DNA of 64,000 nt from a virus, in the IMG/VR virus record IMGVR_UViG_3300002835_000017; one strand, 5' to 3'. A program made the position numbers and the translations under genes. This document shows positions 1 through 18,831 of the stretch, piece after piece (the stretch's first letter is position 1; every line of letters begins with the position of its first letter). The notes below the pieces were generated by a model. That model ran no database searches. It was not told the DNA's origin and saw only the letters and a list, made by a program, of their open reading frames with translations.

Positions 1-482
1 CCAATCATACTCCCACACCCAAACCAATAGAAAGAATGTTCGTATTTCATCTTTTCACCATCTTCAAATGCAATAGTTCCTACTAATTTTCCATTTTTAT
101 AACATTTGATAGTTCTTTCCAAAAAATGGTCACAAATCATAGCGTACTCATTGAATTCGTTAATTTCTTCTGGTAATAATCCAGTAAAAATTTGTTTTGC
201 GTACATTTCAGTTCTGCCATCTTCAGTTTTTTTTGAAAACCAATATGTAAATCCAATCGAAATAACTCCCAAATTATCTTTATAAGCAGAAATACCTGAA
301 TGCATTCCATTTCTGGCAATTGCAAATGATTCTTTATTTGTAATTACGGTATCAGGAAATACTTTAAACTTTACGAATAAAGAAAAATCCTCATCCATAT
401 CTTTATCAATTCTTCTTGACACCGCATATCTACTTTCCGGCAAAACGAAAAATATACTATCTTTGTTTACTCTTAAACTCAT
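1..482 (-). CDS. LamG/concanavalin A-like domain protein (3' end truncated by window edge; absent from ORF track)
   Basis: ATG at 482 overlaps the TGA of the radical SAM gene (ATGA). Open to the window edge: MSLRVNKDSIFFVLPE...DFSLFVKFK...IKCYKNGKLVGT...FYWFGCGS, the same pattern as the LamG inserts in the adjacent GT7 genes. Confidence 0.7.
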   Translation of the reverse strand, partial: MSLRVNKDSIFFVLPESRYAVSRRIDKDMDEDFSLFVKFKVFPDTVITNKESFAIARNGMHSGISAYKDNLGVISIGFTYWFSKKTEDGRTEMYAKQIFTGLLPEEINEFNEYAMICDHFLERTIKCYKNGKLVGTIAFEDGEKMKYEHSFYWFGCGSMI

Positions 483-1894
483 ATTTTTATTGTTGAACAA
501 AAGTGATAAAATTCTTCTAATTCAGGGAATGTTTTACAAAAATCAGTTCCTCTACGTTTATCATGATTTGAGAAATATTGATAAAAACTATATCTATTTT
601 TCATTTGTTGTGTTGCATCCTGCGGAGAAACCATCCAATCATAAATTCTTTTTACTTTTTGAACCTCAACATCAGAATATCCAATATGTTTTGGGTCAAA
701 TGATGGTGCCGCATAATATGTAATTAGTTTGGCTTGGTCCGTAATATGTTTAGCGTAATCAAAAGGAAGTACCTGAACCGTCTGATGTAGCGGGTATCGT
801 AAATATGATGAATCTAAAAACACTGCAGAATTCCAATATCTATCGGTAGATGCGTATACATCTTTTAATGTGTAAATATTATGAATTAATTGTTCATAAT
901 TAAAAACACTTAACGCATTGTATGTAGACATGAATGTTATAATAGTTCTTGGACATTGTGTAAGAATTTTATTTACGTTATCCCAAAATTTATTGAATTC
1001 TAATCCAGTACGAATGTATTCTGCTTGCTCACCCCACGTATCCGTAGATGTAAATATTACAATTTCTTTTACCCTACCTTCATCCTCTATTTTTTTTATT
1101 TTTTCAATTAGTTTATCTATTAATTTATCAGGAACTCCTAAATTTGAATTAATTGCTAATTTTAATTCAGTATTTGGGTTTGGATGATTTAGAATGTAAT
1201 CTAATACACCCCAAGTATCCTTTGACATTAACGGTTCACCACCAGTAATTCTAAAAGTGTGTAAATCTTTGTATAAATCAGGCCACCATTTCCAAAATGC
1301 TTCAACATAAGGATTATATTCTTTGTTTGGGATGGGTAATTTATCTTCATTTTTCATCCAATCAACTGAATTGAAATTGTCTAATGTTGGATACGCTCCA
1401 AATTCTTCAATTTCTTCCATCCATTTTGAACTGTATGCAGGACCACAATAGGAACATTTAAAATTACACGCATTTGAGAATGCAACTTCTACATACTTTG
1501 GATTAAAATCTTCTCTCCAATCAGATTGGATGATATCATTTATAAATGGATAAGACCAACTTTCACCTGATTTAAAAACTCTATCCGAAAAACGGTCTGA
1601 ATTATCTTCCACTTTCCAACAATAATCACATTCGGTTGGTCTTGCTCCTTGTAACATTTCTTTTCTACGAAGTTTTTTGTATCTCGTATTGTGAAGTGCA
1701 GATGGATTTCGTGCAATTTCCGTTTCTGAAATTTTATGTGTTTGAGGGTGGTGACATGAGTGGTTATGCCCACTTTGTAATTGCAATGTTACCTGCGTCC
1801 ATTTAGCGGCACACATACCTGGACCAACTGCATCTAACTCATCTTTAACTCTTAAATATATCGGATTTTCCGAATAACTTTTATCTTCTGCCAT
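479..1894 (-). CDS. Radical SAM protein with N-terminal twitch/SPASM-like Cys cluster
   Basis: CNFKCSYC (CxxxCxxC), TGGEP motif, N-terminal CAAKW..SCHH..ECDYCW. Confidence 0.9.
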   Translation of the reverse strand: MAEDKSYSENPIYLRVKDELDAVGPGMCAAKWTQVTLQLQSGHNHSCHHPQTHKISETEIARNPSALHNTRYKKLRRKEMLQGARPTECDYCWKVEDNSDRFSDRVFKSGESWSYPFINDIIQSDWREDFNPKYVEVAFSNACNFKCSYCGPAYSSKWMEEIEEFGAYPTLDNFNSVDWMKNEDKLPIPNKEYNPYVEAFWKWWPDLYKDLHTFRITGGEPLMSKDTWGVLDYILNHPNPNTELKLAINSNLGVPDKLIDKLIEKIKKIEDEGRVKEIVIFTSTDTWGEQAEYIRTGLEFNKFWDNVNKILTQCPRTIITFMSTYNALSVFNYEQLIHNIYTLKDVYASTDRYWNSAVFLDSSYLRYPLHQTVQVLPFDYAKHITDQAKLITYYAAPSFDPKHIGYSDVEVQKVKRIYDWMVSPQDATQQMKNRYSFYQYFSNHDKRRGTDFCKTFPELEEFYHFCSTIKI

Positions 1895-1898
1895 ATTT

Positions 1899-3365
1899 TT
1901 ATTTTAAACAATGAACATTTATTAATTTATGTTTATCGGAAATGATTTTAGTGCTAATATGTTTATACTTCATATTATTTATACCATCTTTTTTATAATC
2001 AATCTTACCCTGTTGCATTTCTAATACATATCTTCTTTCATTTCTAGCCGTTGTTTCTCCTTTAGCCCATTTATCAACACCTCCAACTTTAATTAACCCC
2101 TCGGTTTCATGTGGTAGACAGAAAAATTTACCATCTCTTCTATGCGGTAATATTACATGAGGTATTTGTATTTCTCTTTCCTCAATACTAACATTATACA
2201 TTACACCATCATTTACTTCAGCCTGGTCTATTACAAATTTACCATCAGTTATTTCATCAAAATTATAATGTAATATTAAACCATCCGTTGAATATTCTTT
2301 ATGTAATTTTGAAACATCTTCACTTGATAATGCTCTATTCCATAATTTAATATCGGCAATTTCACCTTTAAAAAAGGCGTGTGGTTCAAATGGTTCTACG
2401 GTAGATGTGTGTCCTATGTAAAATGGCTCTGTACCATATCTTTTTAAATTATAGTTGTATTCAACTGGAGATTGTGTGCCAGTTCCGTTTCTAGCATCAC
2501 TTTCATTTCCATTCAAATAAAAATGCATTTTCTTTTCTAAATCATCAACTACCATTGTTACCCAAGTCCACTCACCTTCATAACGCTTGAACCATTGATA
2601 TATGTGTTCTCTGTGTGAGTTCCACATCATACCAGTATATGCTCTACTGTTATTAAAGGATAATCCCCAATCATAACCTGGTTTTCTGAATATAGGATAT
2701 TCAACAAATTTTCTTTCAGTATCACCAATTAACCAAATAGGAACTTTTTCTATTTGTTGTTCTGCTTTTACTAATACTGAAATCGTATGTGAATTAGATA
2801 TTGCCATTCTAGTTTGTTCTGTGGATGGTATTTTAATATAAGATTGCTTACCATCAAATAGTGCCACATTTTTTACTTTAGCAAAATCAATAGTTTGTTT
2901 ATCCACATATCCTTCCATAACACATCTCCAAAAAAGGTCATCATCTTCCATACCCCAATCCCAATAGTCATTTGAATAACCATTAGTTGCTAAAACTTGT
3001 TCTTTTGTAAAAACAACCGCACCACCAAAGTATTCCTGATATTTTAATTGATAATCAGATTGTGAAATACGAACTGCAATGTGTTGTGGATTTTCTTCTG
3101 GATATGAATAATCACAACTATCATCTTCAGGCACCATATCAATATCATGCCAAACAATATAATCACATCCATCATCAATTGCGTGCTTTGCAGCAATATT
3201 TTTCATCAATCCTCTGTTGAATAAATATTCATCACATTGATGTGCAATATAAATGGTATGGTCAATTCCTTTCTTTGTTAAGAAATTAGTAACCCAAGGA
3301 ACAAATTTATTCATGTGTTCCTCTCTGTTTCTATATGGTACGCAAACACCTAACTTATGTCCCAT
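1899..3365 (-). CDS. GT7 beta-1,4-galactosyltransferase-like glycosyltransferase with inserted LamG domain
   Basis: VPYRNR, FNRG, WHDIDM (DxD), YFGG, NGYSNDYWDWGMEDDDL; LamG FYLNG..FYIG..FKGEIADIKLWNRALS; GT7 C-terminal part GKFFCLPH..DGINNMKY. Confidence 0.88.
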   Translation of the reverse strand: MGHKLGVCVPYRNREEHMNKFVPWVTNFLTKKGIDHTIYIAHQCDEYLFNRGLMKNIAAKHAIDDGCDYIVWHDIDMVPEDDSCDYSYPEENPQHIAVRISQSDYQLKYQEYFGGAVVFTKEQVLATNGYSNDYWDWGMEDDDLFWRCVMEGYVDKQTIDFAKVKNVALFDGKQSYIKIPSTEQTRMAISNSHTISVLVKAEQQIEKVPIWLIGDTERKFVEYPIFRKPGYDWGLSFNNSRAYTGMMWNSHREHIYQWFKRYEGEWTWVTMVVDDLEKKMHFYLNGNESDARNGTGTQSPVEYNYNLKRYGTEPFYIGHTSTVEPFEPHAFFKGEIADIKLWNRALSSEDVSKLHKEYSTDGLILHYNFDEITDGKFVIDQAEVNDGVMYNVSIEEREIQIPHVILPHRRDGKFFCLPHETEGLIKVGGVDKWAKGETTARNERRYVLEMQQGKIDYKKDGINNMKYKHISTKIISDKHKLINVHCLK

Positions 3366-3366
3366 T

Positions 3367-4797
3367 CTACAATAATACCGATAGATGATGATAGTTATTC
3401 ATTGTTACATCATTTAATACTTGATATAAACAACTATTTAAACCATCTTTATCTGTGTTATATAATTTAGTTTTAACTTGATTTAAAAATCTTAATTGGT
3501 TTATACGAGTTTCTCTGTGAACCCAGTTTTTCTCATTCCAACTATTTGTTTTATGAGATAATAATTTAAATAAAGATTTTCTTCTATATGGAACTGCCAT
3601 TTCTCTACCCAATGATTCATGTGATTTTATGAAATGGCAATTGTGTATTTCTCCGTTATTATTATTAAATGATAAATCTAATAAAGTATCTTCTTTATAG
3701 AATTTAAAATCATAATATAATTGTAAATGTTGTGCGGATTTATAACCTCTAAAATTTTCTAATAAAGAATTTTCTAAAACATTGTCAGATAATATTTCAA
3801 TTTCTTTATCTTTTAATTTACAATCATATATTGCAAATTCGGAAATCATTCCATAAAAAAAGTTTTGATTAGAATCTCTTTCTGGTGAACCAACTCCTAA
3901 ATAAAAATATTCTTCATTTGAATAATCTTTAGGTGCATGTTTTACTTTTTCAGTATTAACTAACGTACCATCTTTATAAAAAGAAATTTGGTTTTTTTCA
4001 TAATCAAAAGTTAAACAGATTTGAGTAAAATGATTAGTTAATATTTCTGAATTAATAGAAGTGCAGTTATCAGTATTATCCCAAAAATCTATTTTATATC
4101 TTCTAAATGAATTATAACTTATATTTGTATCATAACCAGGTATAGAAAATACAGTATACTCATCATAATCATTATTTGGGTTAGATGTTATTTCATCTGG
4201 CTTAAATGTTATTAATATTGTAGTATCCTTTTCAAAATCTAATAATTCTTTTTTTGGTATTTTTATATAAGAATCGTTTCCACTAAATGATAATCCGTAT
4301 AATTTTTTGGTTTCATTTTTACCAATTATTTTAGAATCTAATGGAATTTTTTTCTGATTTACTCTAAATAAAAGGTCGTCATCTTCAAATCCCCATCCCC
4401 AATATAAATTGGAATACCCGTTTATTCGTTCAAATGTATCGGAACTAAACATAGTTACACCACCAAAATAGTCATCAAATGATAAGTTTTTAGATTTATC
4501 ATATTCTAATTCAAAATTAGTTGCAAGATGCATAGGTAATTCAGAATAAGAATAATCAACCTCAATTGGTAACATATCCACATCATGAAATACAACATAA
4601 CCACATCCTAATTCTTTTGCTTTAATATATCCAATATTTAATAACTTTCCTCTATTAAACGGTTTATCATCAGTTTGTTCAACTACAATAATTTCGTGTT
4701 TAATTTTTTTGGATTTTAAATATGAAGATGTTATTTCACCGAATCGGGTGAGATGTGATTCTCTATCTCTATATGGTACAATTATTCCTAATTTCAT
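3367..4797 (-). CDS. GT7-like glycosyltransferase with inserted LamG domain (paralogue 2)
   Basis: VPYRDR, PFNRGKLLNIG, FHDVDM, YFGGV, NGYSNLYWGWGFEDDDL; LamG FYKDG..FYGMISEFAIYD; C-terminal LLSH..DGLNSCLY. Confidence 0.88.
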   Translation of the reverse strand: MKLGIIVPYRDRESHLTRFGEITSSYLKSKKIKHEIIVVEQTDDKPFNRGKLLNIGYIKAKELGCGYVVFHDVDMLPIEVDYSYSELPMHLATNFELEYDKSKNLSFDDYFGGVTMFSSDTFERINGYSNLYWGWGFEDDDLLFRVNQKKIPLDSKIIGKNETKKLYGLSFSGNDSYIKIPKKELLDFEKDTTILITFKPDEITSNPNNDYDEYTVFSIPGYDTNISYNSFRRYKIDFWDNTDNCTSINSEILTNHFTQICLTFDYEKNQISFYKDGTLVNTEKVKHAPKDYSNEEYFYLGVGSPERDSNQNFFYGMISEFAIYDCKLKDKEIEILSDNVLENSLLENFRGYKSAQHLQLYYDFKFYKEDTLLDLSFNNNNGEIHNCHFIKSHESLGREMAVPYRRKSLFKLLSHKTNSWNEKNWVHRETRINQLRFLNQVKTKLYNTDKDGLNSCLYQVLNDVTMNNYHHLSVLL

Positions 4798-4802
4798 TTA
4801 GA

Positions 4803-5144
4803 TTATACTTTTTCGATATCTTTTTTAGGTCTTGCTCTACGAGGTGGTGGTAATTCTGCCCCTTCTTCGGTTTGGGCAGGTTCTGTTGGAACATTTCCAG
4901 CAAAAGGTTTTTCTGAATTTGATGATGCACCATTTTCTTTTGCAATATTATAGAATTCATACAGATAATACGCAACTCTATCACTCCACTCTGATTTGTT
5001 AATTTCTTCAAACCAAATAGTAAGTGCATCTAATGAGTTTGCAATTTTTTCTAATGCTTTTACTTTTCTAGTTTCTAACACAACTGATTCTAAATTTTCG
5101 TTTGTAGAAGGTGTTGTATCAGACTGTAACTTAATTTTTGCCAT
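4803..5144 (-). CDS. Hypothetical protein embedded in GT7 array
   Basis: 113 aa ORF tightly packed between GT7 paralogues; helical core and disordered Pro/Arg-rich tail. Confidence 0.6.
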   Translation of the reverse strand: MAKIKLQSDTTPSTNENLESVVLETRKVKALEKIANSLDALTIWFEEINKSEWSDRVAYYLYEFYNIAKENGASSNSEKPFAGNVPTEPAQTEEGAELPPPRRARPKKDIEKV

Positions 5145-5151
5145 TTTATTT

Positions 5152-6609
5152 TTATATTTTAATTTGATGCTTATAAACTCCTGTTTTAATTTCTTCGGTT
5201 GATATTAAATCGTATGATAATGTATTCAAACCAAATTTATCAGTATCTAATATATCAGTTGCAATTTCATAAAAGAAAATATTTTCATTTTCTTCAAATA
5301 TTTCATTTTTTTCTGTCCAATTATAGTTCTCTAATTTAGTAAATTTTTTTGAATTTTCCAAGATTTGAAACCGTCCATTTGATTGTTCTGGCATATCAAA
5401 TTCATAAGATAAATTCAATTCTTCGGAATATGTTTCCTGATGTATTCCAGTTGATACTATTCTTGGATTTGAAAATGTTTTAGAATCATCTACATAAAAA
5501 TCTCCAAATTTTTTATCAAATGGTACATTTATAACCGCTTCAAAATTTGTAGTTATTGTATTGTTTGTTGTTTTGTATCCGTCTGTATATAATTTTATTA
5601 TTTCAGAATCTGCTAACGCGTAATCAAATAATAATAAGTTGGATATTTTGCCACTAAATGAATTTTTAAATGCTAAACTACCAATCCATAAATCTTTTCC
5701 TTTAAAATCCATTAAATGTTTTGGTAATTTATCTAATGTTTGCACAATTTTACCATCAACATATAAACTGGCTTTTTTCTTATCCATATCAACCTTTAAT
5801 GATAGGTTTATCCATTGATTGGCATGAGATTTATGTGGATACCACATTTGATGTAAATTATTATCATCACTCCACAATTGAACTACAATTGCTTCATTTT
5901 TCATAATAAAAATTCCCATATCATATCCTTGTTTTCCAATAATACACCCATTATTTGATTGGTTGTTATTGATAAAAACATTCATTGATATTGTAAATGA
6001 ATCTTCAAAAATATAATCGGTTGTTTTATTTGCTCTTACAAATACACAATTATTTTCATTTGATTCAAACGGATATATTGTTTTTTTAATGTATTTATTT
6101 ACCTCTTTTACATCTGTTAAAACATGCGGTTTATATATATTTTTAGTAAAAAATCTTTTTGCAGATAATAATTTGTGTTTTTTTAATCTATACAAAAAAT
6201 CTATCCAATGAAAAGAACCTCCCCAATAATCATTACTAAATCCGTTTGCTTCGAAGAAATTTTCTTTTGTAATTTTAAAAGCACCACCTACCCAATGTGG
6301 ATATGGTTTTAAATTTGGACAAAGGTGAGTTGGATAGTATTCAAAATCGTAATTGCACGATTCCTGTTTAGGTAAAATATCTATATCATGGAATACATAA
6401 TAATCTGAACGATTTTGTGTTATGGATGCACCAATATTGCATAACTTTCCATAATTGAAATAAACATCTGCATCAATTTGTTCTATGAAATGAATTTCGT
6501 AATCCGTTTTATCTTTTAAAAAGTATTCCATGTGACCCACAAAGGTATATAGGTCTTGTAAACGATTGGAGTACGGTACTATAATTGATAACTTTTTATT
6601 GTTCATCAT
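5152..6609 (-). CDS. GT7-LamG paralogue 3 with degenerate catalytic motif (possible pseudoenzyme)
   Basis: VPY, FNYGKLCNIG and FHDIDI retained, but NGFSNDYWGGSFHWIDF replaces WGWGxEDDD; LamG LYVDG..LWIG..FSGKISNL; FGLNTLSY tail. Confidence 0.8.
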   Translation of the reverse strand: MMNNKKLSIIVPYSNRLQDLYTFVGHMEYFLKDKTDYEIHFIEQIDADVYFNYGKLCNIGASITQNRSDYYVFHDIDILPKQESCNYDFEYYPTHLCPNLKPYPHWVGGAFKITKENFFEANGFSNDYWGGSFHWIDFLYRLKKHKLLSAKRFFTKNIYKPHVLTDVKEVNKYIKKTIYPFESNENNCVFVRANKTTDYIFEDSFTISMNVFINNNQSNNGCIIGKQGYDMGIFIMKNEAIVVQLWSDDNNLHQMWYPHKSHANQWINLSLKVDMDKKKASLYVDGKIVQTLDKLPKHLMDFKGKDLWIGSLAFKNSFSGKISNLLLFDYALADSEIIKLYTDGYKTTNNTITTNFEAVINVPFDKKFGDFYVDDSKTFSNPRIVSTGIHQETYSEELNLSYEFDMPEQSNGRFQILENSKKFTKLENYNWTEKNEIFEENENIFFYEIATDILDTDKFGLNTLSYDLISTEEIKTGVYKHQIKI

Positions 6610-6623
6610 TTTAATAACCTATT

Positions 6624-7475
6624 TTATATAGATATAATTTTTTTAAATAATTTATCCCAATTTTTATAATTTTCATAGTTCGCAGTTGGGCAATATTCAA
6701 ACATATATGTTACATCATCATCAATTGGCATTTGAAAGTTTTCTCTCCGAAGTGCTTGGTACATTTTTAAATATTCATCTGAAAATGCATAATCTTTTCT
6801 AATATCTGCTACTGATTTAATTCTATCTATACAAGTAGAATCCCATTTAAAATGATGAACCTGAACATTATACTCATCAACGGGTGCAATTAATGGGTGA
6901 TTCCATCCCATCCATTTCCAAGTTGTTTGTCCATCAATTTTAGCATAATGTTGTCCTGATGTTAATTCAATATTTCCTTTTACTATACAAATTTTGTTTG
7001 GACATGCTCCACTCATTGGGTATCTGAAAAATCCAGCATACGGAAATTGCTCAAATATATTATCAGTTTGATTTATTTTACTAAATTCACCATCTTCCCC
7101 AATTCTATCTATAAATCCACCTCTTACTAATTCCCACCCGTTATTATTACAATCCGCTATTATTTCTGATAATGGTTTTGAATATAAATGAAACTCATCA
7201 TCATCCGATATTACCCACCAATCATTAGGATATTTTGATTTTTCTTCGTTGTATAATTTGGTAACTAATTCCCAATTATATTTTTCTCCAATTGCTCTTC
7301 TTACTATTTTCGCATTTGAAAATTGTGAAACAATATCGGATACATCATTGTATGTACTAACACCTTCCCATTCATATACAACCACCCACATCTCATCTAC
7401 TAAATCGGCATAATGCTTTAGCATGTGATATAAAGTGTTTGTTCTACTACCTGTTACTGTAACTAATCTAATCAT
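6624..7475 (-). CDS. GT-A glycosyltransferase (GT2_4/GT92-like)
   Basis: MLKHY, WWVISDDDEF, K..GQH, VHHFKW motifs. Confidence 0.75.
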   Translation of the reverse strand: MIRLVTVTGSRTNTLYHMLKHYADLVDEMWVVVYEWEGVSTYNDVSDIVSQFSNAKIVRRAIGEKYNWELVTKLYNEEKSKYPNDWWVISDDDEFHLYSKPLSEIIADCNNNGWELVRGGFIDRIGEDGEFSKINQTDNIFEQFPYAGFFRYPMSGACPNKICIVKGNIELTSGQHYAKIDGQTTWKWMGWNHPLIAPVDEYNVQVHHFKWDSTCIDRIKSVADIRKDYAFSDEYLKMYQALRRENFQMPIDDDVTYMFEYCPTANYENYKNWDKLFKKIISI

Positions 7476-8230
7476 TTTCTTTTAACTAATGTTAATCCAG
7501 TTGATGCTGGTTTATTTTTTTGAATACCAAAATTAAAAAGGTCAAATACTTCCCAATTTGGATTATCCTTTAATTCTTTTGCAAATACAATTGGTCCGTG
7601 CCAATCATCAAAATCACCTCTATCTTTTACTTCGTTTGTAACGATGTAACTATCTGCATAGTTAGGGTCGGTATCGTGGATTGAAATGATTCCATTTGGA
7701 GAAAGTAATTGTGAGTATAACTCAAAATCTTCTTTAACATTTTCATAACTATGCCCTGCATCAATATGCAAATAATCTATCTGAATATCATTGAGAACAA
7801 AATAATTATGAAATGCTTCTTCTGTTGTTTTATTAATAATTCGTGGATGAAATGTTCTTCTAAAAAAAGATTCTTCTCTGAACCAATTTACATTACCCCC
7901 AATACCATTCATCGCATCAACTACATAAGTAACTCCAATATCTCCCCAATTTAAATCAGGATTTCCTTCAAATATTTTCTGATTATATAAATCATATCTA
8001 GCCTGTGTCATTAATCTTGGAATAAATCCACCACCACTTCCCAAACATACACAAGTTTTTGCTCTCATATACTGGATGATGGAATACACAATTAATCCAT
8101 CACCTAAATGTAAATCAGTTGCACCATGAGACCATCTATAAGGAACTGGAGAATCTTCTTGTTCCTGATACTCATTGAATTCGATATTATTTGTTATAGT
8201 ATTTTTTATGTATTGTAAATCTTGTAGCAT
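7472..8230 (-). CDS. Class I SAM-dependent methyltransferase (Methyltransf_24-like)
   Basis: CLGSGGG, IDYLHIDAGHSYENVKEDF, LSPNGIISIHD. Confidence 0.85.
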   Translation of the reverse strand: MLQDLQYIKNTITNNIEFNEYQEQEDSPVPYRWSHGATDLHLGDGLIVYSIIQYMRAKTCVCLGSGGGFIPRLMTQARYDLYNQKIFEGNPDLNWGDIGVTYVVDAMNGIGGNVNWFREESFFRRTFHPRIINKTTEEAFHNYFVLNDIQIDYLHIDAGHSYENVKEDFELYSQLLSPNGIISIHDTDPNYADSYIVTNEVKDRGDFDDWHGPIVFAKELKDNPNWEVFDLFNFGIQKNKPASTGLTLVKRK

Positions 8231-8292: not shown

Positions 8293-9180
8293 TTATTCAG
8301 TTATTTTAGTATAATATTTTTCAACTTCATCTTTAATTTTTGGCCATAGAAAATTTGTAAAGAAATCGATTGATTGTTCTTTTGATGGATGATTTTTACC
8401 ACCCAACATTGGTTCGTTTTTGTTGACAAAGTATTCTAGCATACCACCACCAAATCCATTTACCCTAACATCATCTGTAAATATAAATTTACTAAAATCA
8501 ATTTTTTCTAATAGTTCTGATATTATATTTGCTTCGAACCATGAATCGTCAAATGGTTCTAATTTATCAAACAAACTTTCTGTTTTTAGTATAGAATAAT
8601 TTCCTGCGTCTGAATCTGTTTTTTTTTGAAGAATCTGTAACTTGTTTACTGCAACATCCATTTGAAATAAATTACCTATACAAAACATTTTATATGGTAT
8701 ATTTTTTTCTTTAAAATACTGTTGAGTATGATATATACTTTCTAATGTTTGCAATATAGCACCATGTATTGAATAATATTTTTCAAAGAATTCTTTTCCA
8801 TATCCTGATATATCAGTTCCGTTTAACATATAGTTTATTTTACCAATTCTTTCAGGATGCATATTCATTCTTGGAAAGTTTTTTGCTCTATCCTCATCTA
8901 CAAATACAGGATAATCCCATCTATCGATTGTAGACCATTGAACTATTGCATAATCCACTTTCCAATGTGGTTTTAGTGCGTTATTATACTGTAATGAATT
9001 TAAAAACTTAAATACTTTTCTCCTCATTATGTCATTTCCAGAACCACCACAACCTGCATTATATACATCAAATGGTTCCGCTGATTTTTTATTATCAAAT
9101 AAAGAATATCCTTCCGTTTCAAACCCAATAGGCCAGTTTTCATCTCCAGCAGAAAACGAGCATCCGTTTATTAATATCAT
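8293..9180 (-). CDS. SGNH/GDSL hydrolase-like protein (candidate O-acyl esterase/transferase)
   Basis: ILINGCSFS (block I), NAGCGGSGND (block II), IVQWS, NHPS (block V). Confidence 0.75.
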   Translation of the reverse strand: MILINGCSFSAGDENWPIGFETEGYSLFDNKKSAEPFDVYNAGCGGSGNDIMRRKVFKFLNSLQYNNALKPHWKVDYAIVQWSTIDRWDYPVFVDEDRAKNFPRMNMHPERIGKINYMLNGTDISGYGKEFFEKYYSIHGAILQTLESIYHTQQYFKEKNIPYKMFCIGNLFQMDVAVNKLQILQKKTDSDAGNYSILKTESLFDKLEPFDDSWFEANIISELLEKIDFSKFIFTDDVRVNGFGGGMLEYFVNKNEPMLGGKNHPSKEQSIDFFTNFLWPKIKDEVEKYYTKITE

Positions 9181-10499
9181 AATAATTTATTTATATTATT
9201 CATTATATTGCAATAATGTGTTATCAATTTTTGTTTATTTTCTTTTAATATAGGTGTTTTTTGAATAAATGTATTTTTAGCATCGTTTATATTTTTATTT
9301 TTTAAAAAATCTACTATCATATCAATTTGTTCTAATTCATTTTTTGTTTGAATTCCTTGTAAACCAAAATCATCTAAAAACAAATCTATACCAATTCTTT
9401 TATATTCACTATATACTTTATTGGAACCAAATATCAATGGAAGTTTTTCCGATAATATTGGTTTTATAGATTTTTCTGTAAAAAATCCATATTTTAAATT
9501 AAAAATACAATGTGTTTCACCAACTACTTCAAAATATGATAAATCGTATTCTTTTTCTCTAAAATAATAAAGTAAATGGTCAAACTCAAATGGAGCATTC
9601 AAAGGTGTAATATTTATTTCATTTCTTATAGATTGTAATTTATTAAAATTTTCTTTTGTAAAATATTTTATATGATTATCGGTATGCGTGTTAGTATGGT
9701 CTGTATATATGTATCCTTCTCTAACTGCTTGTAAATATTCTATTAAAAATTTTTCATTTATACAATTTAAACCTGTTTTTAATATATCCGATTCTTTTGC
9801 TTTTAATAAAAACTGAACTCTATGAAATCTTGGTTTTAATGCCTGACTACTATACACATATAGTTTTTCAGTATTATGTGATATATTTAGATTTTTAAAT
9901 ATATTATAAAAATTATCATTATATGCTAATTTACCAGTAGTATGATTTGGAAATAAAAAATTTGTAAATTGTCCTTCGGCCATCAAATGAAACATACAAT
10001 AGAATGAATCGTAGTGAAAGTTTTTATCTCCATCAAACAATTCATAATCTGTCATTTTAATATGATTAAATTTAAAATCATATCTAAAATATTGTTCATC
10101 TTTTTCGTACTCAACTGCTTCTAAAAATGCAAAATTAAATAAAACTTTTGCATTACGTTCAACATACAGCTGTTCCAATTTATTAAATTCAATTGGATTT
10201 TTTTTCATTAATGGTAAATAAAATTCACTCCATATTTTTCTATCAATAACAATTATTAAATTATCAATTGGGTTTGAATACATTAAATCAAAAGTTGTTA
10301 TACCATCAAATGATTTTAATTTATTTAATACATTATATGGGTTTTGTATATAGTGATGTATTTTAATTTTTTCACCAGCATTATCTATAACAATTTCATG
10401 ATGTTTTTCTATTTTTATTGGGGTTACGGAAATCAAATTTGCTTCTGGAAACAAATTCTGTAACTCATTATATGTTGCTAATATATTTAATGACCTCAT
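9177..10499 (-). CDS. Putative glycosyltransferase (GT10/GT47-like C-terminal domain)
   Basis: RFHR, SYFEVVGET, FFTEKSIKPI motif; glycan-cluster context. Confidence 0.5.
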   Translation of the reverse strand: MRSLNILATYNELQNLFPEANLISVTPIKIEKHHEIVIDNAGEKIKIHHYIQNPYNVLNKLKSFDGITTFDLMYSNPIDNLIIVIDRKIWSEFYLPLMKKNPIEFNKLEQLYVERNAKVLFNFAFLEAVEYEKDEQYFRYDFKFNHIKMTDYELFDGDKNFHYDSFYCMFHLMAEGQFTNFLFPNHTTGKLAYNDNFYNIFKNLNISHNTEKLYVYSSQALKPRFHRVQFLLKAKESDILKTGLNCINEKFLIEYLQAVREGYIYTDHTNTHTDNHIKYFTKENFNKLQSIRNEINITPLNAPFEFDHLLYYFREKEYDLSYFEVVGETHCIFNLKYGFFTEKSIKPILSEKLPLIFGSNKVYSEYKRIGIDLFLDDFGLQGIQTKNELEQIDMIVDFLKNKNINDAKNTFIQKTPILKENKQKLITHYCNIMNNINKLL

Positions 10500-11451
10500 T
10501 TATCCAATTTTGTTTGTTTGTATAGAAATATAATCTTGTTGATAGTTTATGAAATTCAGCATTAACTATATCCATATCATTTTCTAAAATTTCTAAATAT
10601 TTTTGATGAAATTCTCCTTTACTACTTGCTCTATATTTGTAATCAATATGTGGCATCCAATCGGTATGTATAATTGGAATTTTACCATTATCAATTGCAT
10701 CAAAAATTGCGTATCCAAACGGTTCTTTAGTATAACATCCGTGAAATATTTGAAAATTACTTTCAAAAAACTTTTGATGGAACCGATAATCAAATTCTAT
10801 AAATCTATGGTATTCGGAATTTATTTTAGAACCTTCCAACATTCGTTTGTAATCATATTTGTTTGAAAATATAATTGATGGAATGTAATCTAAATAATGT
10901 GCGTTTTTTCGGGTTTCACATCTAGCAGCATACCCAATTTTGTTAGATATAACTCCTGTAAATGGTTTTTTATTTTTCCATTCGTAATAATTTGTGATTG
11001 TAATAGTATTTGGATACATTTTATGTATAGTATCAGATTCATATCCAATCCAAACTATATTATCAGAGTTATCTAATATTTCTTTTTGCCATTCCCAATC
11101 AATACGAGTCATTAGATTTTCGTACTCATCGTTTAATCCCAACATATCAGGAATAAATGCATGAACAAAGGTTGTGTGGGTTTTGTGAAGATATTTTTTG
11201 ATTATAAGATTTGGTTTGTATGAGTGGTGGAGAAAAATTATTTTATCACACTCATCTAATATCTTATCTATTTCCTCATCGTTTTGGAAAGTGTAAATTG
11301 CACCTTCTTCTGGTAACAAAGGTCTACCATCAACTACAATTTTGTAATCGTCTTTTACTAATGGTAATATATTTTCGAAAAAGTTATTACACCATAAATC
11401 AGCTCCGCCAATAACATTTTTTCCATAACCTGTTGTGATAAATACTATCAT
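10468..11451 (-). CDS. GT4-type GT-B glycosyltransferase
   Basis: N-terminal GGAD, ARCETRKN, EPFGYAIFDAIDNGKIPII. Confidence 0.8.
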   Translation of the reverse strand: MIVFITTGYGKNVIGGADLWCNNFFENILPLVKDDYKIVVDGRPLLPEEGAIYTFQNDEEIDKILDECDKIIFLHHSYKPNLIIKKYLHKTHTTFVHAFIPDMLGLNDEYENLMTRIDWEWQKEILDNSDNIVWIGYESDTIHKMYPNTITITNYYEWKNKKPFTGVISNKIGYAARCETRKNAHYLDYIPSIIFSNKYDYKRMLEGSKINSEYHRFIEFDYRFHQKFFESNFQIFHGCYTKEPFGYAIFDAIDNGKIPIIHTDWMPHIDYKYRASSKGEFHQKYLEILENDMDIVNAEFHKLSTRLYFYTNKQNWINEVIKYISNI

Positions 11452-12840: not shown

Positions 12841-13568
12841 TATATTCCTCCGCCTCCTCCCGAATCCGCTTCAATAAAATGTACAAATATCGCTTGTACA
12901 TTATTAATATCGTTCCAAGGTATAGTTATTGTTAAATCAGAAACAGTTCCACCATCGGAAAAATAAGTATTAAAACTATTAACCGGGGTTCCATCTGGTC
13001 CGTTTCCATTGATACTACAATTTTCTATTGTTGGAGATACACCACATTGGTCGGATATTCCTCTATATCTTCCACTAGATTTACTATTAACTACAATTTC
13101 AAAACCACTTGAATAATTATTTAGGTAATCCCAATAGATATCAAACCTACCACATCCTCCCAATCCAGTATTACCAAGAACCCCTGCTAACGAACGAGGA
13201 TTGAATGAACCACAATTGGAAACATAAATTGATGTGTAATTGTTATGAATTTTACTTCTTGGGATTTTTATTTCACCATAAGTATAAGCAAGACTGTCTA
13301 CCATAAAAGCCTGAATTCCACCTGCTAATCCAATATTGGTTTCAAAATCAAAAAATAAAGAATCACCAAATCCACTTACATTTTGTGTTTGGTCATTTGA
13401 ACCACCCAAAGTTAAATCAGGAATATATTGATTTTCTGCTATATTAGGCCAACGAATTTCAATTGGAAAAAACGCGTAAGGAGTTGATGAGCCAGCTAAA
13501 ACGGCACCAGTGCCTGATAAGTGATTACCCAATGCTATTTTTGAAGTTGGTATTGTTATAATTGACAT
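12840..13568 (-). CDS. Hypothetical virion/fibre-associated protein
   Basis: G/S/N-rich, directly downstream of the tail fibre gene. Confidence 0.5.
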   Translation of the reverse strand: MSIITIPTSKIALGNHLSGTGAVLAGSSTPYAFFPIEIRWPNIAENQYIPDLTLGGSNDQTQNVSGFGDSLFFDFETNIGLAGGIQAFMVDSLAYTYGEIKIPRSKIHNNYTSIYVSNCGSFNPRSLAGVLGNTGLGGCGRFDIYWDYLNNYSSGFEIVVNSKSSGRYRGISDQCGVSPTIENCSINGNGPDGTPVNSFNTYFSDGGTVSDLTITIPWNDINNVQAIFVHFIEADSGGGGGI

Positions 13569-13569
13569 A

Positions 13570-16500
13570 CTACTTATTTAATAACTTTTTAATTGATGTT
13601 ATTTCATTTTTTAATTCAGTAATTTCACCATTTTGTTCTTTTATTCCTTCAATCAATAAGGCAATTATCTTTTCGTAATCAACTCCTAAATATCCATCAC
13701 CCTTTTCCTTTACAACTTCTGGTAATACTTCTTGAATTTCTTGTGCTAAAACTCCTACTTCTTGAACATTTTTTGGTTTGTTAGAAATACCGTTCCAATT
13801 AAATGTATATCCTCCAATTTTTTTAATTTTATCCATTGGATTTGAAATAGGAATAATATTTTCTTTTAATCTCTTATCGGAACTAGCTAATGCGTAAACA
13901 TCACCAGTTGCTCTTATATCACCATTTATAGTTAGAACACCACTAGATACTGAAAATTCACCAACTGATAAATTTGTTATTGAACCATTGGTTGCACTTA
14001 AAGTAGAAAATGTACTTAATCCAGAAAAGTTTGATGAACCCTTTACGGTTAAAAAATTAGTGGCAGATAAACTTGTATCAACTTTAAATTGATTTGAACC
14101 ATATAGTGATTGTAATCCTGCTTGGCAAATTTCAACACTTCTAGGTGCACTACCAACTACGGCATTTACCCCACTAAAATTTGGAGTTTTTAAAGTAATA
14201 CTTTCACCACCAACTAAATAATTTACTCCAATTTGATGTTTTATTCTAACATTATATGTTCCACCTGAAGGTATTACTATAGAACCACCTCCAGTAGATG
14301 TTATACCTCGTTCATAATTAGGAGCATTATAAAATACATAACCCGATGCAATAAGTGCTTCGCCCACTCCCACAACTTCTAAACTTACCCAATGGTAAGT
14401 TTGAACATAAGTTGCAGTAGATATTTGCATCCAATATGAAGTACCTGCCGAATTGGAAATCATTGATGCTATCTCCGCATCTGTTATTGAAACCTCTGTT
14501 CCAGCTGCAACAACACCCGTTGATACATTGTTTGAATAGAATGTAGTACTTGCTTCAGACTGTAAGTTTTGTCCAAAAATTGCACCATTTCTTACTACTG
14601 AATCTGTACCACTAAAATCAGATAAAGCGGATGTAGAACTTCCTATTCTAAATGAAGTATCATCCGTCATAATTACTGCATTTCTAGAACCATCTTTTAT
14701 AAAGAATCCTAAATCATTTGAGTTAATTTCTATTGTACCAGTACTCGTTTTACTTATTTTATCGGTAGAAATTGACCAACCTCCAATTGTAGCACCTAAC
14801 GCGGATAATTCACTTACTGTTATTTTATCTGCCGTTACAGAACCAGCTGCAATCTTACCCGCAGTTATGGCATTTGTAGCAATTTTATCTGCAACTATTG
14901 CGTTCGCTGCTATTTTATCGGCAATTATTGCATTCGCTGCTATTTTACCAGAAGTAACTGCATCTGTTGCAATATTTCCCGCTTGTACTGCATTAGCAGC
15001 TAATTCTGTATTTGTTACGGTACTTAATGTTGCCAAACCACCCAATCCTGTAACTTGTCCAGTTGATACGGTGTTTTGAGTTGCCAAAGTCCCCAATCCT
15101 GTAACTTGTCCAGTTGATACGGTGTTTTGAGTTGCAAGGCCTCCTAATCCTGTAACTTGTCCAGTTGATACGGTGTTTTGAGTTGCAAGGCCTCCCAATC
15201 CACTCACCGTTCCAACTGGAACACTACTACCAACAGCTATGTTACCAACTATATTTAGAGTAGTTCCATCCCATGTTAATGAATTTGATGCAGATTTTAA
15301 AGATAACCTTCCAGTTGTTCCATTACTACCTATAAATGCACCAATTTGGTCATATCCTTTCGTTGCTTGTCCAATTGAAATAAACGGAGATGTTGTGCCA
15401 CCTGCAATTGTAATATTAGCATTACCTGATGAATTTGTTCCAACATTTATTGTGTTTTGTACAAATGATTCTTTAGATATAAACATTTCAGCAGCTACAA
15501 AAAATGAATCTGTTCCGAGTGATTGCCAAAATGTGGTTTGAGTATCCGGTTGTTTATTTAAATTTGCAGATGCATTTGTTTTTGTAGCATAATAAGTTCC
15601 ACTATACAACACCACATCTTTACGTGTTGGGTCTTGACTAACACTATTGTAAGTTGTAGTAGAATTCCAAGGACCTCTAAACACTACACCTGGCCCGTCT
15701 CCCCCAGTCGCTCCGGGTGCACCATCTGCTCCGTTCGTTCCATTGGTTCCGTTCGTTCCATTGGTTCCATTAGCCCCTGCTGCTCCAGTAGGAACTTTTG
15801 TTGCTCTAACAATTATCGTTTGAGTTTGTCCAGTCGTACCTTCACTATCAGTATGTGTTACTGTTAATGTTACCGATGCTTCTGCTGCATTCATTACCGC
15901 AGATGTCATTGTTAATGTTGCACTACTAACAGTTGGTGGAGTTGAGAATCCTGAAGTAGATGCAATGGTCATAGAAGTAAATCTACTAGTTGTTCCTTCT
16001 AATGCACTTATAGTTACATTTGATAAAGTTCCAGTTTGCGTTCCTGCTGCATTAGCCAATACAGATTGCGCTTGAGGTGAAGCAGAAATTAATACCAATG
16101 GAACTGCTTTTTTAACTTTTGATAAACTTAATGTATCGGTTACAGTTCTACTTGTTCCTTCAGAATCAGTTACAATTGCACTTATATTTACAGTTGTGGA
16201 ATTTATTCCATCCGCTAAAGTTTGATTACTCAAAGTTACTACTCCAGTTGTATTATTTACTGTTAAACTCCCACCAGTATCTACTCTAGTTGCAGTTAAT
16301 GTTGCTGGTAAAGTGATAGTAGAACCATTGTAAGTTTCTTTTACAACTATCGTTGAATCTAAAAATGAATCAATTTGTGCACCTGTTGATTTAGCAGTTA
16401 CACTTTGGTCTTTTGGTGTTGATGATATAGCTAAAACAGGTGCTGCTTTTTTATTTTTAGTATAAGTTACGTTTTTTATAATAGAAGTTGTATCACCTGC

Positions 16501-18831
16501 TCCATCCTTATAACTAATTGTTATATCCAATGAACCCGAATCTTGAGTAAGATTTGTAATACTGTATGAGTTTGTTGTTGGATTACTATTATTTCCACCA
16601 TTTGGAGTACATCCAATTCCACTTAAATTTGTTATAGCAAACGTATTATTTGCTCTAATACTATCATTATCATCATCAAATGAAATACTCTCATTACCCA
16701 CTTTAACAGTCACCGAACCACTTGTCAATATGAATGAACCACTTGCTATAAATCCATTTGAAAGTGATGGAAGTGATGCGTTATCATTTGTGAGAGTTGC
16801 GGATAATCCATCTAATATTTTTACAGGAGTTATTTTTATTGCATCAGAAAATTGATTACCAAATTGGTCTGAACCTGAAATGAAGTATGTAGTCTCTCCC
16901 GTTCCAAAGGAATAATCAGTTCCAGCTATTGTATAGGTATCTACGCCGTTTGTTGAGTTAGTAGATACCAATGTCAATGGTGGTTTACCACTTCCTGAAT
17001 TTACAGTTAATGGAGTTGTTGCCGATGCTAAATTCTTACGTTTAGCTTCGATTGTTATTGTTTGACCCGATGGGTTTATTGATAAATCTGTTGCTTTATA
17101 AATAAATTGATTTGTATTAGATGTTACAAAAACACCAGGTGCATTATCACCATCTTCAAATCTGTATACAGTTTCAAATTGTTCTAATCCTTCACACGAT
17201 GCAGTATATGTAATTGAACCAACTAATACAGATGCTACACTACCAGTAAAATTTGCAATAGTTAATGTTGCACCCGCATCACTTACATTTGTTAATGTTC
17301 CAGGATAAGTTCCTGCATAGGATGCGGGTACTATATAATTACCGCCAATATCAAATGCAGATGATGCGTATGTAACTGAACCTGTTAAATTTGATTTTGA
17401 AACTTTAAATCCTAATTGTTGAAATGCAGGATTACCAAATGAACCAGTAGAAAATCTAAATGCAGTTCTATCTGAATCAAATGTTAACAATTTAGTGGCT
17501 ACTCCACTTGTCCCACCCGTAAAATTTGCACTCTGTGTTACTGCAACTGGAACAAAATTGTTATTTACATCATAAAATTCAAATTTAAAATTATAAGTTT
17601 CATTACCAATGACTGTGGGCATTGTAGTAATAAAGGAGATTTCATCAGGTGAAAATGCCGTATCTTCGGAAAGTCTTAAACTTATATTTCCAACATGCCA
17701 TTCACCTTGCGATTGTGAAAAATATAAAGAACCACTTTGAAAATCGGAATCTAATTTAAATGGAATAACCGTATCTGATAGATTTTTTGTGGGGGTTATT
17801 CCATTTAATGTACCAATTAAAACATCACCACCATCCGAGCCACTTATGTATATTCCTAAATTACTTGCGGTAGATGATGAGTAAAACGCATCTAAATTTA
17901 ACTCATACGTGTTTGATGCTTTTATGTCCAACGATTGTGAGTAAGTTAATAATCCACTTCCGTTTAATTTTAATCCACTTTCAACTCTACTAGATGTTAA
18001 TTGGGCAGTTAATGAACCAGTATTCCAAAATAAAGGTAATACTTCCGATGTAAATGTTCCAGTATTTCCTATAACACTTCCTGTTAATTGGGTAGTTGTT
18101 AATAATTCTTTTGATTCTACTAATATATCTTGTATTAAATTAAAATCAGAAATATCTCCTTCAGAAGTTCTGAATACTTTTACTCGTTTTACATCACCTG
18201 CAAATGTTTCTAATTGTGAAAGTTTAATTTCTGCAAAAGATTGATTTATACCAGAATCAACCTTTGAACCACTTTCTATTCTGTATATTGGGGATAGTAT
18301 TTCTGTAATAGTAGCAGTTGGTCTACGATAAAAACGAATTTTAGTAGTATTTGCCAATGTAGGATTTACATTAACACTTCTCTGCCACTTTACATTGTAA
18401 GTACCTTGCCAATCAATTGGTATTGGTGTTAATAAACCATTACCATCATAGTATGAGCTTAATTCACCTAATATTGTAATTGTACACGGACCATACGCAG
18501 TTGTATCTGGATAAACATATACCGCTACAACTTTTGATACCCCTTCATAGTATTCACTAATAAACGATTCTCCGTTTATAGATGACGATACTATACCTTC
18601 ACCAGGTTCATGATATATAGTATTTCCTGCAGCATCTTTAATTTCAATTTTAACTAAAGTATCGGCTACTAATTCCTTTGAACCTGCTATTAAAAATGCG
18701 TTCTTACCACCAGTAAATGCATCTGGTATTTCTGTTACATTGAAGTAGGTACTATTTGGAGCAGTATCTACTACAAATGTATTATACTTATCTAAATTTT
18801 CAGCAAAAAGCGTTTTCTTTATTACGGCCAT
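13570..18831 (-). CDS. Long tail fibre protein with collagen-like segment, beta-repeat shaft and C-terminal peptidase S74 intramolecular chaperone
   Basis: C-terminal SSDKRLKENI..GVLAQEIQEVLPEVV..GVDYEKIIALLIEGIKEQ plus coiled coil; G-X-Y run; A(N)AIxADKI repeats. Confidence 0.88.
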   Translation of the reverse strand: MAVIKKTLFAENLDKYNTFVVDTAPNSTYFNVTEIPDAFTGGKNAFLIAGSKELVADTLVKIEIKDAAGNTIYHEPGEGIVSSSINGESFISEYYEGVSKVVAVYVYPDTTAYGPCTITILGELSSYYDGNGLLTPIPIDWQGTYNVKWQRSVNVNPTLANTTKIRFYRRPTATITEILSPIYRIESGSKVDSGINQSFAEIKLSQLETFAGDVKRVKVFRTSEGDISDFNLIQDILVESKELLTTTQLTGSVIGNTGTFTSEVLPLFWNTGSLTAQLTSSRVESGLKLNGSGLLTYSQSLDIKASNTYELNLDAFYSSSTASNLGIYISGSDGGDVLIGTLNGITPTKNLSDTVIPFKLDSDFQSGSLYFSQSQGEWHVGNISLRLSEDTAFSPDEISFITTMPTVIGNETYNFKFEFYDVNNNFVPVAVTQSANFTGGTSGVATKLLTFDSDRTAFRFSTGSFGNPAFQQLGFKVSKSNLTGSVTYASSAFDIGGNYIVPASYAGTYPGTLTNVSDAGATLTIANFTGSVASVLVGSITYTASCEGLEQFETVYRFEDGDNAPGVFVTSNTNQFIYKATDLSINPSGQTITIEAKRKNLASATTPLTVNSGSGKPPLTLVSTNSTNGVDTYTIAGTDYSFGTGETTYFISGSDQFGNQFSDAIKITPVKILDGLSATLTNDNASLPSLSNGFIASGSFILTSGSVTVKVGNESISFDDDNDSIRANNTFAITNLSGIGCTPNGGNNSNPTTNSYSITNLTQDSGSLDITISYKDGAGDTTSIIKNVTYTKNKKAAPVLAISSTPKDQSVTAKSTGAQIDSFLDSTIVVKETYNGSTITLPATLTATRVDTGGSLTVNNTTGVVTLSNQTLADGINSTTVNISAIVTDSEGTSRTVTDTLSLSKVKKAVPLVLISASPQAQSVLANAAGTQTGTLSNVTISALEGTTSRFTSMTIASTSGFSTPPTVSSATLTMTSAVMNAAEASVTLTVTHTDSEGTTGQTQTIIVRATKVPTGAAGANGTNGTNGTNGTNGADGAPGATGGDGPGVVFRGPWNSTTTYNSVSQDPTRKDVVLYSGTYYATKTNASANLNKQPDTQTTFWQSLGTDSFFVAAEMFISKESFVQNTINVGTNSSGNANITIAGGTTSPFISIGQATKGYDQIGAFIGSNGTTGRLSLKSASNSLTWDGTTLNIVGNIAVGSSVPVGTVSGLGGLATQNTVSTGQVTGLGGLATQNTVSTGQVTGLGTLATQNTVSTGQVTGLGGLATLSTVTNTELAANAVQAGNIATDAVTSGKIAANAIIADKIAANAIVADKIATNAITAGKIAAGSVTADKITVSELSALGATIGGWSISTDKISKTSTGTIEINSNDLGFFIKDGSRNAVIMTDDTSFRIGSSTSALSDFSGTDSVVRNGAIFGQNLQSEASTTFYSNNVSTGVVAAGTEVSITDAEIASMISNSAGTSYWMQISTATYVQTYHWVSLEVVGVGEALIASGYVFYNAPNYERGITSTGGGSIVIPSGGTYNVRIKHQIGVNYLVGGESITLKTPNFSGVNAVVGSAPRSVEICQAGLQSLYGSNQFKVDTSLSATNFLTVKGSSNFSGLSTFSTLSATNGSITNLSVGEFSVSSGVLTINGDIRATGDVYALASSDKRLKENIIPISNPMDKIKKIGGYTFNWNGISNKPKNVQEVGVLAQEIQEVLPEVVKEKGDGYLGVDYEKIIALLIEGIKEQNGEITELKNEITSIKKLLNK
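14820..15000 (-). repeat. Six 10-aa repeats (A[AT]NAIxA[DG]KI) in tail fibre shaft
   Basis: AANAVQAGNI ATDAVTSGKI AANAIIADKI AANAIVADKI ATNAITAGKI AAGSVTADKI. Confidence 0.85.
15029..15201 (-). repeat. 51-bp tandem repeat (~3.4 copies; GLGGLATQNTVSTGQVT)
   Basis: aatcctgtaacttgtccagttgatacggtgttttgagttgc occurs three times at 51-nt spacing. Confidence 0.92.
15688..15790 (-). repeat. Collagen-like G-X-Y run (about 11 triplets) with an 18-bp duplication
   Basis: GAA GAN GTN GTN GTN GTN GAD GAP GAT GGD GPG; ccgttcgttccattggtt x2. Confidence 0.85.

Follow-up and report, generated by a model that had tools for sequence, protein, structure and literature searches.

What might a phage do with a glycosyltransferase into whose catalytic fold a second, binding-type domain has been spliced, and why would it carry three versions of it? 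This question is raised by the IMG/VR virus record IMGVR_UViG_3300002835_000017, of which we analysed a stretch of 64,000 nucleotides (the window) and, within it, three minus-strand genes between positions 1,899 and 6,609. Their products combine the two halves of a glycosyltransferase (GT) of family GT7, the family of the animal β-1,4-galactosyltransferases, with an internal laminin G-like (LamG) domain, and are referred to here as the GT7-LamG proteins of types 1, 2 and 3. We find that this nested design holds up and occurs very frequently among uncultured phages, and we could find no description of it in papers. The three genes and the approximate boundaries of their parts are as follows:

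1899..3365, minus strand: type 1 GT7-LamG protein P0001, 488 amino acids (aa); N-terminal GT7 part ~2889-3365, LamG ~2157-2888, C-terminal GT7 part ~1899-2156
3367..4797, minus strand: type 2 GT7-LamG protein P0002, 476 aa; N-terminal GT7 part ~4297-4797, LamG ~3598-4296, C-terminal GT7 part ~3367-3597
5152..6609, minus strand: type 3 GT7-LamG protein P0003, 485 aa; N-terminal GT7 part ~6079-6609, LamG ~5395-6078, C-terminal GT7 part ~5152-5394

A LamG domain nested in the GT7 fold

That three open reading frames (ORFs) with GT7 motifs occupy these positions had been proposed in a first-pass annotation made from the letters of the DNA, and is confirmed by the ORF positions, Pfam matches and alignments; the motifs cited there are likewise present. 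The three proteins are collinear paralogues that can be aligned over their full lengths at 25-27% identity (E 1e-53 to 2e-29), each with the same order of an N-terminal GT7 part, about 240 aa of LamG and a C-terminal GT7 part, and the stop codon of type 2 lies 1 nucleotide from the start of type 1. For types 1, 2 and 3, respectively, Pfam recognises Glyco_transf_7N at E 1.7e-18, 1.1e-18 and 1.3e-13 (66.9, 67.6 and 51.2 bits; cut-off 27), Laminin_G_3 at E 8.3e-14, 5.6e-16 and 1e-11 (52.4, 59.5 and 45.6 bits; cut-off 27.6) and Glyco_transf_7C at E 2.7e-18, 1.9e-17 and 4.9e-5 (65.8, 63.1 and 23.3 bits; cut-off 23), the last of these being barely above the cut-off in type 3 and covering, in each protein, profile positions ~2-60 of 78 only. 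Behind Laminin_G_3, each protein ends in a tail of 85-90 aa without Pfam assignment. Alignment with insert-free GT7 proteins of ~220 aa identifies this tail as their 'G.[FY]..L.H ... DGLN.L.Y' end, and places the extra ~240 residues between the helix after the E-D-D-D motif and the strand that bears the metal-binding His. The earlier placement of LamG as an internal insertion just before the acceptor loop is borne out by this, as the domain lies between these two elements and ahead of the loop that forms the lid of the active site.

The match between P0001 and bovine B4GalT1 (E 5.6e-32) runs across residues 3-167, and the phage proteins begin directly at the catalytic core, with residues 3-4 aligning to bovine residue ~180. 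No hydrophobic segment was found in any ORF of the gene cassette to which they belong, so that the type II anchor and Golgi stem of the animal enzymes have no counterpart here. All three proteins are acidic, with isoelectric points (pI) of 5.7-5.9 overall and of 4.7-5.4 for the LamG parts.

The predicted structures agree with a split catalytic domain. The AlphaFold model of P0001, built on an alignment of 50 diverse family members (alignment A1), has a predicted local distance difference test score (pLDDT) of 92.7 and a predicted template modelling score (pTM) of 0.89, and superposes with VIA-align on bovine B4GalT1 (1tvy_A) at Z 28.3 and a root-mean-square deviation (rmsd) of 2.0 Å over 218 residues (model 1..488, chain 178..400), and on human B4GalT7 (4irq_B) at Z 27.3 over 211 residues. 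A local Foldseek alignment of the same model covers its first 152 residues only, as would be expected from an insertion. The intervening residues, ~162-403, resemble LamG and pentraxin jelly rolls, including the LG domain of PAPP-A (Z 21.6), BACOVA_03559 (4dqa, Z 21.2) and the pentraxins (Z 17-19). The model of P0003 is weaker (pLDDT 78.3) and gives the same split superposition, matching human B4GalT7 at Z 24.7 over 211 residues (model 1..485). Since these superpositions on B4GalT1 and B4GalT7 span both halves of the enzymes, the C-terminal segment is predicted to complete the GT-A fold; its identification as the rest of GT7, on which the first-pass annotation had staked its interpretation, stands in both models. 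The pTM of P0001 further suggests that LamG and the catalytic domain are held in a fixed arrangement.

Two observations concern the inserted domain itself. A motif 'L..YDF......D.S.N.NG', which normally stands before the 'FDG..SY' start of LamG-like jelly rolls, is found after the LamG domain both in the inserts (P0001 ~362-392; P0002 ~360-388) and in a free-standing paralogue encoded nearby; this displacement may reflect a circular permutation that brought the LamG termini together for nesting. The C-terminal part of the insert is also matched in three giant proteins, P0187, P0208 and P0256 (3003, 7023 and 5632 aa), in 12-18 repeated stretches.

Catalytic residues, selection and distribution

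In B4GalT1, the metal is bound by D254, M344 and H347, W314 sits in the small loop and D318 is the catalytic base. Type 1 keeps the corresponding motifs throughout (PYRNR, FNRG, HDID, YFGG, W..EDDD as WGMEDDD, CLPH and DGINN), type 2 keeps HDVD, W..EDDD (as WGFEDDD), LLSH and DGLNS, and across every orthologue examined both types retain PYR.R, FNRG, H-D-x-D, YFGG, W-G-x-E-D-D-D and the His. In alignment A1, E140, D141, D143 and H419 are each conserved in at least 90% of the members. Judged by these residues, types 1 and 2 are probably active enzymes that transfer sugars from UDP donors with inversion.

The three copies had been described together as GT7-like, and for the third this description has to be corrected. 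Type 3 keeps the DxD motif (HDID), but its W-G-x-E-D-D-D is replaced by GSFHWID and its metal-binding His by Asn (ILEN), a state shared by the window and all 8 clade orthologues from the loci that we fetched (67-93% identity); distant type 3 proteins, at ~30% identity, retain E-D-L-D and the His. Among 123 cluster representatives that are type-3-like, the catalytic Asp and the His are both kept in 71 and both lost in 50, with only 2 mixed cases, and the derived 'F-H-W-x-D' state is itself conserved. Lacking the small-loop Trp, the Glu, the catalytic Asp and the His that binds the metal, the type 3 protein of this clade keeps a GT7 fold in the model and is probably no enzyme of this family. It is nonetheless a protein kept by selection and not a decaying gene, as the ratio of nonsynonymous to synonymous substitution rates (dN/dS) of its GT core is low and similar to that of the other two types (0.08-0.18 for type 3, 0.04-0.17 for types 1 and 2, in pairwise comparisons); for all three paralogues, dN/dS is 0.07-0.21. 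A paired loss of catalytic Asp and His in a selected paralogue makes it a clear candidate pseudo-glycosyltransferase.

The triplication of these genes is old, and the three types are old orthogroups, because the same gene order is kept in a relative whose three GT7 proteins share no more than 31, 44 and 42% identity with those of the window. In a tree of the GT cores, types 1 and 3 each form a group with a Shimodaira-Hasegawa-like approximate likelihood ratio (SH-aLRT) support of 99, type 3 falling within a weaker group of types 2 and 3 (SH-aLRT 87) and P0003 itself sitting on a long branch. The insert-bearing proteins as a whole make up three supported groups, and the tree neither forces nor excludes a single origin of the LamG insert.

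The design is widespread in metagenomic data. A word-seeded search returned 1659 relatives, of which the 120 listed carry GT7/LamG Pfam domains (short fragments lack one or two of them) and are named 'hypothetical protein' wherever their source gives a name. An exhaustive search of representatives at 50% identity gave 5648 matches at E<=1e-3, including ~50 full-length clusters with the insert, and at least 445 encoding stretches are present in IMG/VR. One JGI record labels a type 3 protein 'beta-1,4-galactosyltransferase 1'. The clusters of a language-model atlas that hold the GT7-LamG protein are 100% viral and assigned to Uroviricota. In prokaryote assemblies sampled at one genome per species, full-length copies occur on only three contigs of metagenome-assembled genomes (MAGs); two of these (Pelagibacterales, 26.5% GC; Flavobacteriaceae, 248 kb) bear the same phage cassette, and the third (Spirochaetales) has two type-1-like copies with radical S-adenosylmethionine (SAM) and carbamoyltransferase genes. 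A 23-kb cassette contig binned in a Candidatus Pelagibacterales MAG (VHCC01000006.1, locus L015; type 1 at 64% identity, GC 26.5%) gives either a weak hint of a freshwater SAR11 host or a binning artefact of low GC content.

Among 50,697 GenBank phage records, neither megablast of the first 12 kb of the window nor tblastn of P0001 and P0002 returned a match, so that a cultured carrier cannot be named. A fold search of BFVD yielded no viral UniProt protein with both domains in the top 50, and our literature searches found no paper describing a GT7 enzyme with an inserted LamG. The first-pass annotation had asked whether the architecture is common and already described; it is common, with thousands of metagenomic sequences, but no description of it was found in papers.

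The conserved cassette and its likely acceptor

The GT7-LamG genes belong to a cassette whose composition we counted in 76 IMG/VR loci spanning the interval. Its order is 327-aa GT4-like protein (not always present), methyltransferase, 283-aa protein, type 3 (optional), small protein, type 2, type 1 and radical SAM protein, followed by either a free LamG-like protein or further radical SAM genes. In the window, the members other than the GT7-LamG genes are:

3..500, minus strand: free-standing LamG-like protein, N-terminal 166 aa (the gene runs off the window); a free LamG-like protein is present in 39/76 loci
479..1894, minus strand: radical SAM protein with an N-terminal twitch domain (NF033640, E 4.9e-104); after type 1 in 76/76 loci
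4803..5144, minus strand: small conserved protein P0005, 113 aa, between types 3 and 2; no known family
6624..7475, minus strand: 283-aa protein without a Pfam match; in every locus examined, median identity 61%
7472..8230, minus strand: methyltransferase (Methyltransf_24, E 7.9e-12); 74/76 loci
10468..11451, minus strand: 327-aa protein with a weak match to the N-domain of Glyco_transf_4 (E 0.0037, below cut-off); 67/76 loci

Type 3 is present in 37 of the 76 loci and is an optional component. The small protein (75-113 aa) is found in all loci except one (75/76), directly upstream of type 2 in loci with and without type 3. The conservation of this protein exceeds that of the enzymes, and its almost invariant helical core, KALEKIANS.DALT.WFEEI.K.EW.ER..YYL.EF, can be recognised in the most distant relatives. 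A profile search against the PDB and a Pfam scan gave no match for P0005, and the protein is possibly a partner or specifier of the enzymes. As a candidate precursor of a ribosomally synthesized and post-translationally modified peptide (RiPP) to be modified by the radical SAM protein it was rejected, its conserved part being helical and without Cys, with no leader/core pattern visible.

A stand-alone LamG protein had been described as continuing the operon. The ORF at 3-500 is indeed LamG-like, but a radical SAM gene that had been overlooked (479-1894) lies between it and type 1. A profile of the inserts matches this ORF at E 8e-7 (hmmsearch) and nothing else in the window, Pfam alone giving E 0.16, and a full-length orthologue (259 aa, L009:16109-16888) can be aligned with the entire insert over 211 columns (hhalign probability 91%, E 1e-6). 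The 283-aa protein is grouped by the language-model atlas with GT2/GT92-like phage proteins, which serves as a lead only; together with P0005 and the ORFs at 8293-9180, 9177-10499, 11743-12840 and 12840-13568, this ORF (6624-7475) has no family in Pfam, PHROGs or NCBIfam. Downstream in relatives there are short-chain dehydrogenase/reductase (SDR), RmlC-like and thiamine pyrophosphate (TPP)-enzyme genes for the tailoring of nucleotide sugars. The cassette adjoins both nucleotide-sugar genes and fibre genes. Upstream of it in the window lie, among others:

13570..18831, minus strand: tail fibre, 1753 aa, Ser/Thr/Asn-rich (32%), with a C-terminal Peptidase_S74 chaperone domain; upstream of the cassette
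19105-19818, minus strand: 2-oxoglutarate (2OG)-Fe(II) oxygenase of the prolyl-hydroxylase type; immediately upstream of the tail fibre

The reading that we favour, and that in our judgement has about an even chance of being right as a whole, is that types 1 and 2 would be soluble, cytoplasmic, metal-dependent inverting GT7 (GT-A) enzymes using a UDP-type sugar donor. In each, an entire LamG jelly roll interrupts a surface hairpin a few residues ahead of the metal-His strand that leads into the lid; it would be held rigidly against the catalytic domain, most likely positioning either the acceptor or a partner protein next to the acceptor site. Working with the GT4-like protein, the methyltransferase, the GT2/92-like protein, the small protein, the radical SAM protein and the nucleotide-sugar enzymes, types 1 and 2 would build a tailored oligosaccharide on a cytoplasmic acceptor, most probably a virion fibre protein, and type 3 of this clade would be a non-catalytic, selected protein, perhaps an acceptor-binding or scaffolding subunit. 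In GT7 enzymes, acceptor choice is set by the mobile lid and, in mammals, by a partner protein; docking of the acceptor by LamG is plausible here because of the insertion site and of the rigid packing seen in the model.

We infer a lectin-guided role of LamG and, among the conceivable acceptors, would rank a virion fibre protein first, then lipid-linked glycans of the host and, a long way behind, DNA. A glycan built step by step on a cytoplasmic acceptor is favoured by the absence of hydrophobic segments, the acidic nature of the proteins, the adjacency of the fibre genes and the gene content of two complete relatives (202 and 238 kb), which have exactly three GT7 genes each. In these two genomes, searches detected no initiating transferase or flippase (PF02397, PF00953, PF01943) and no gene of the thymidylate-synthase or dCMP-hydroxymethylase family, with positive controls detected in both cases; a search for Tet_JBP gave no match either, but its positive control was also undetected.

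Several points weigh against this reading. The conserved positions of LamG are mostly structural Gly and Asp, and no lectin-type ligand site was identified among them. The adjacency to fibre genes counts as one observation, since it is seen in related, syntenic phages and reflects shared ancestry. N-x-S/T sequons are only weakly enriched in the fibre (42 observed, 29.8 expected, z 2.8), and one NGT repeat accounts for much of this. The host machinery could supply the lipid-carrier steps, which keeps a host glycan in play as the target. Finally, type 3 may have an altered chemistry, as it has a DxD motif and a conserved His-Trp at the lost site. As to the fibre, we also considered that it might be collagen-like, hydroxylated by the 2OG oxygenase and then glycosylated by GT7, and rejected this: it has one 33-residue G-x-y run (residues 1016-1048, with four NGT repeats), without Pro or Lys in the usual places.

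Two other explanations survive best, both of which we regard as unlikely. The first accepts that the enzymes are active and takes LamG as a structural or oligomerisation module, for instance one that keeps the paralogues together with the small protein as an assembly line, or one that stabilises the lid. It would sit well with a model that is confident and rigid over both domains, with the free-standing LamG paralogue in the same operon, with the retention of a non-catalytic type 3 and with the purifying, not diversifying, selection on LamG (dN/dS 0.09-0.28). However, the dN/dS of LamG exceeds that of the GT core in 14 of 15 pairwise comparisons, and LamG also diverges faster than the core in identity across orthologues, a pattern that fits a specificity module equally well.

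The second, to which we give similarly little credence, is that the cassette remodels an envelope glycan of the host (lipopolysaccharide O-chain, capsule or S-layer), for example to block superinfection, with LamG binding the lipid-linked or surface glycan as it grows. Carbohydrate binding is frequent among LamG and ConA-like domains, and transferases acting on lipid-linked intermediates at the cytoplasmic face need no membrane segment. Moreover, where pelagimyophages and cyanomyophages have glycosyltransferases in their host-recognition clusters, these are usually read as modifying the host envelope (PMC7029224). Against it stand the two complete relatives without an initiating phosphoglycosyltransferase or flippase, the cassette proteins without a hydrophobic segment, and a phage that looks lytic and T4-like, with the cassette inside a module of virion and fibre genes; none of these is decisive.

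A bolder version of the favoured reading, which we consider improbable, is a specifier-controlled machine, in which the active GT7 enzymes would assemble with the nested LamGs, the free LamG, the inactive type 3 and the small protein. The assembly would read out one virion fibre protein and dictate the acceptor, in the way that B4GalT1 is retuned by alpha-lactalbumin. Fibres covered in a branched sugar of the phage's own making, tailored by radical SAM chemistry, would then alter the host range or shield the virion. Glycosylation of the phage DNA, by sugar hypermodification of hydroxymethylated bases, is very improbable: phage glycosyltransferases that add one to several sugars to DNA are known (Pyle et al., 2024, as cited in PMC12619734) and the cassette has several transferases and sugar-tailoring enzymes, but the two complete relatives carry no thymidylate-synthase/dCMP-hydroxymethylase family gene, the proteins and their LamG parts are acidic, and the genes lie in the fibre module and not in one for nucleotide metabolism.

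The wider window is that of a large, uncultured aquatic myovirus with a GC content of ~30%, in which all genes of the first 58 kb lie on the minus strand; a promoter and terminator scan gave counts no higher than in shuffled sequence. Two further genes of the window were recorded:

Within the window: baseplate wedge protein, a myovirus marker, with 42.7% identity to Microcystis phage Mel-JY01 and ~40% to Flavobacterium phage immuto
19818-22976, minus strand: fused SbcD/SbcC-like nuclease, 1052 aa in a single ORF

In the latter, residues 5-337 are SbcD-like and 324-1051 SbcC-like, resembling a fusion of genes of the T4 gp47/gp46 type. Among the baseplate genes there is also a NodU/NolO-like carbamoyltransferase (42035-43735, minus strand; PHROG E 3e-125), a homologue of which (L017:9512-11623) adjoins radical SAM genes and two GT7-LamG genes on a contig that binning assigned to Spirochaetales; because of this adjacency, carbamoylation may belong to the same glycan chemistry. 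An extra radical SAM protein (PHROG 21308) is encoded outside the cassette (50369-51418, minus strand), and three homologues of it flank the GT7-LamG genes of L017.

Comparison with known systems

The closest characterised relatives are the animal B4GalT1 and B4GalT7 of CAZy family GT7 (1TVY, 1NF5, 1O0R, 2AE7, 4IRQ, 3LW6), with which the phage proteins share both halves of the GT-A fold (Z 27-28, rmsd 2.0 Å, 29-32% identity) and, in types 1 and 2, the same nucleotide-binding motifs, DxD, small-loop Trp, E-D-D-D, metal His and DGLN.L.Y end. In contrast to the animal enzymes, they carry ~240 aa of LamG before the His-bearing strand, have a lid of ~40 instead of ~25 residues between the His and DG, and are soluble, without signal anchor or stem; type 3 departs further by lacking the Trp, Glu, catalytic Asp and His. 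The insert-free microbial and viral GT7 proteins of ~220 aa and the GT7-like proteins of giant viruses (A0A5J6VLB6, A0A481YZG5, A0A076FM45) have the same core at 38-47% identity and are also soluble, but have no LamG, their post-EDDD helix running directly into 'RK.G.Y.SL.H'. Thousands of phage sequences show a textbook animal GT7 core with a binding-type domain beside the lid, in a fixed cassette near fibre genes.

To our knowledge, self-glycosylation of phages has so far been shown only for mycobacteriophages. If the virion is the target here, the phenomenon would extend to myoviruses that abound in aquatic habitats and produce unusual sugars themselves. Next to their structural genes, the mycobacteriophages encode transferases that glycosylate proteins of the capsid and tail (Freeman et al., 2023, as cited in PMC12619734). 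The present system likewise has predicted transferases encoded beside structural genes, and differs in families, phages and hosts.

For the inserted domain, the nearest functional analogy is found in the GT27 polypeptide GalNAc-transferases, in which a GT-A domain with a Glyco_transf_7C-type region is joined through a flexible C-terminal linker to a ricin-B lectin that steers the acceptor, whereas LamG is nested in the fold and apparently rigid. A LamG that steers the enzyme would amount to a compact, naturally occurring case of a nested lectin programming a glycosyltransferase, and would offer a handle for engineering acceptor specificity. For the other components, lactose synthase (B4GalT1 with alpha-lactalbumin), Cosmc and CHPF are precedents for a small protein or an inactive paralogue that tunes a glycosyltransferase; their counterparts here, with which they have no sequence or family relation, would be the 75-113-aa protein before type 2 and the inactive type 3 that has been kept. 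The points that are new here are 1) the old set of three orthogroups, 2) the optional, probably non-catalytic yet selected type 3 of this clade, 3) the conserved small protein before type 2, and 4) the free LamG-like paralogue after the radical SAM protein.

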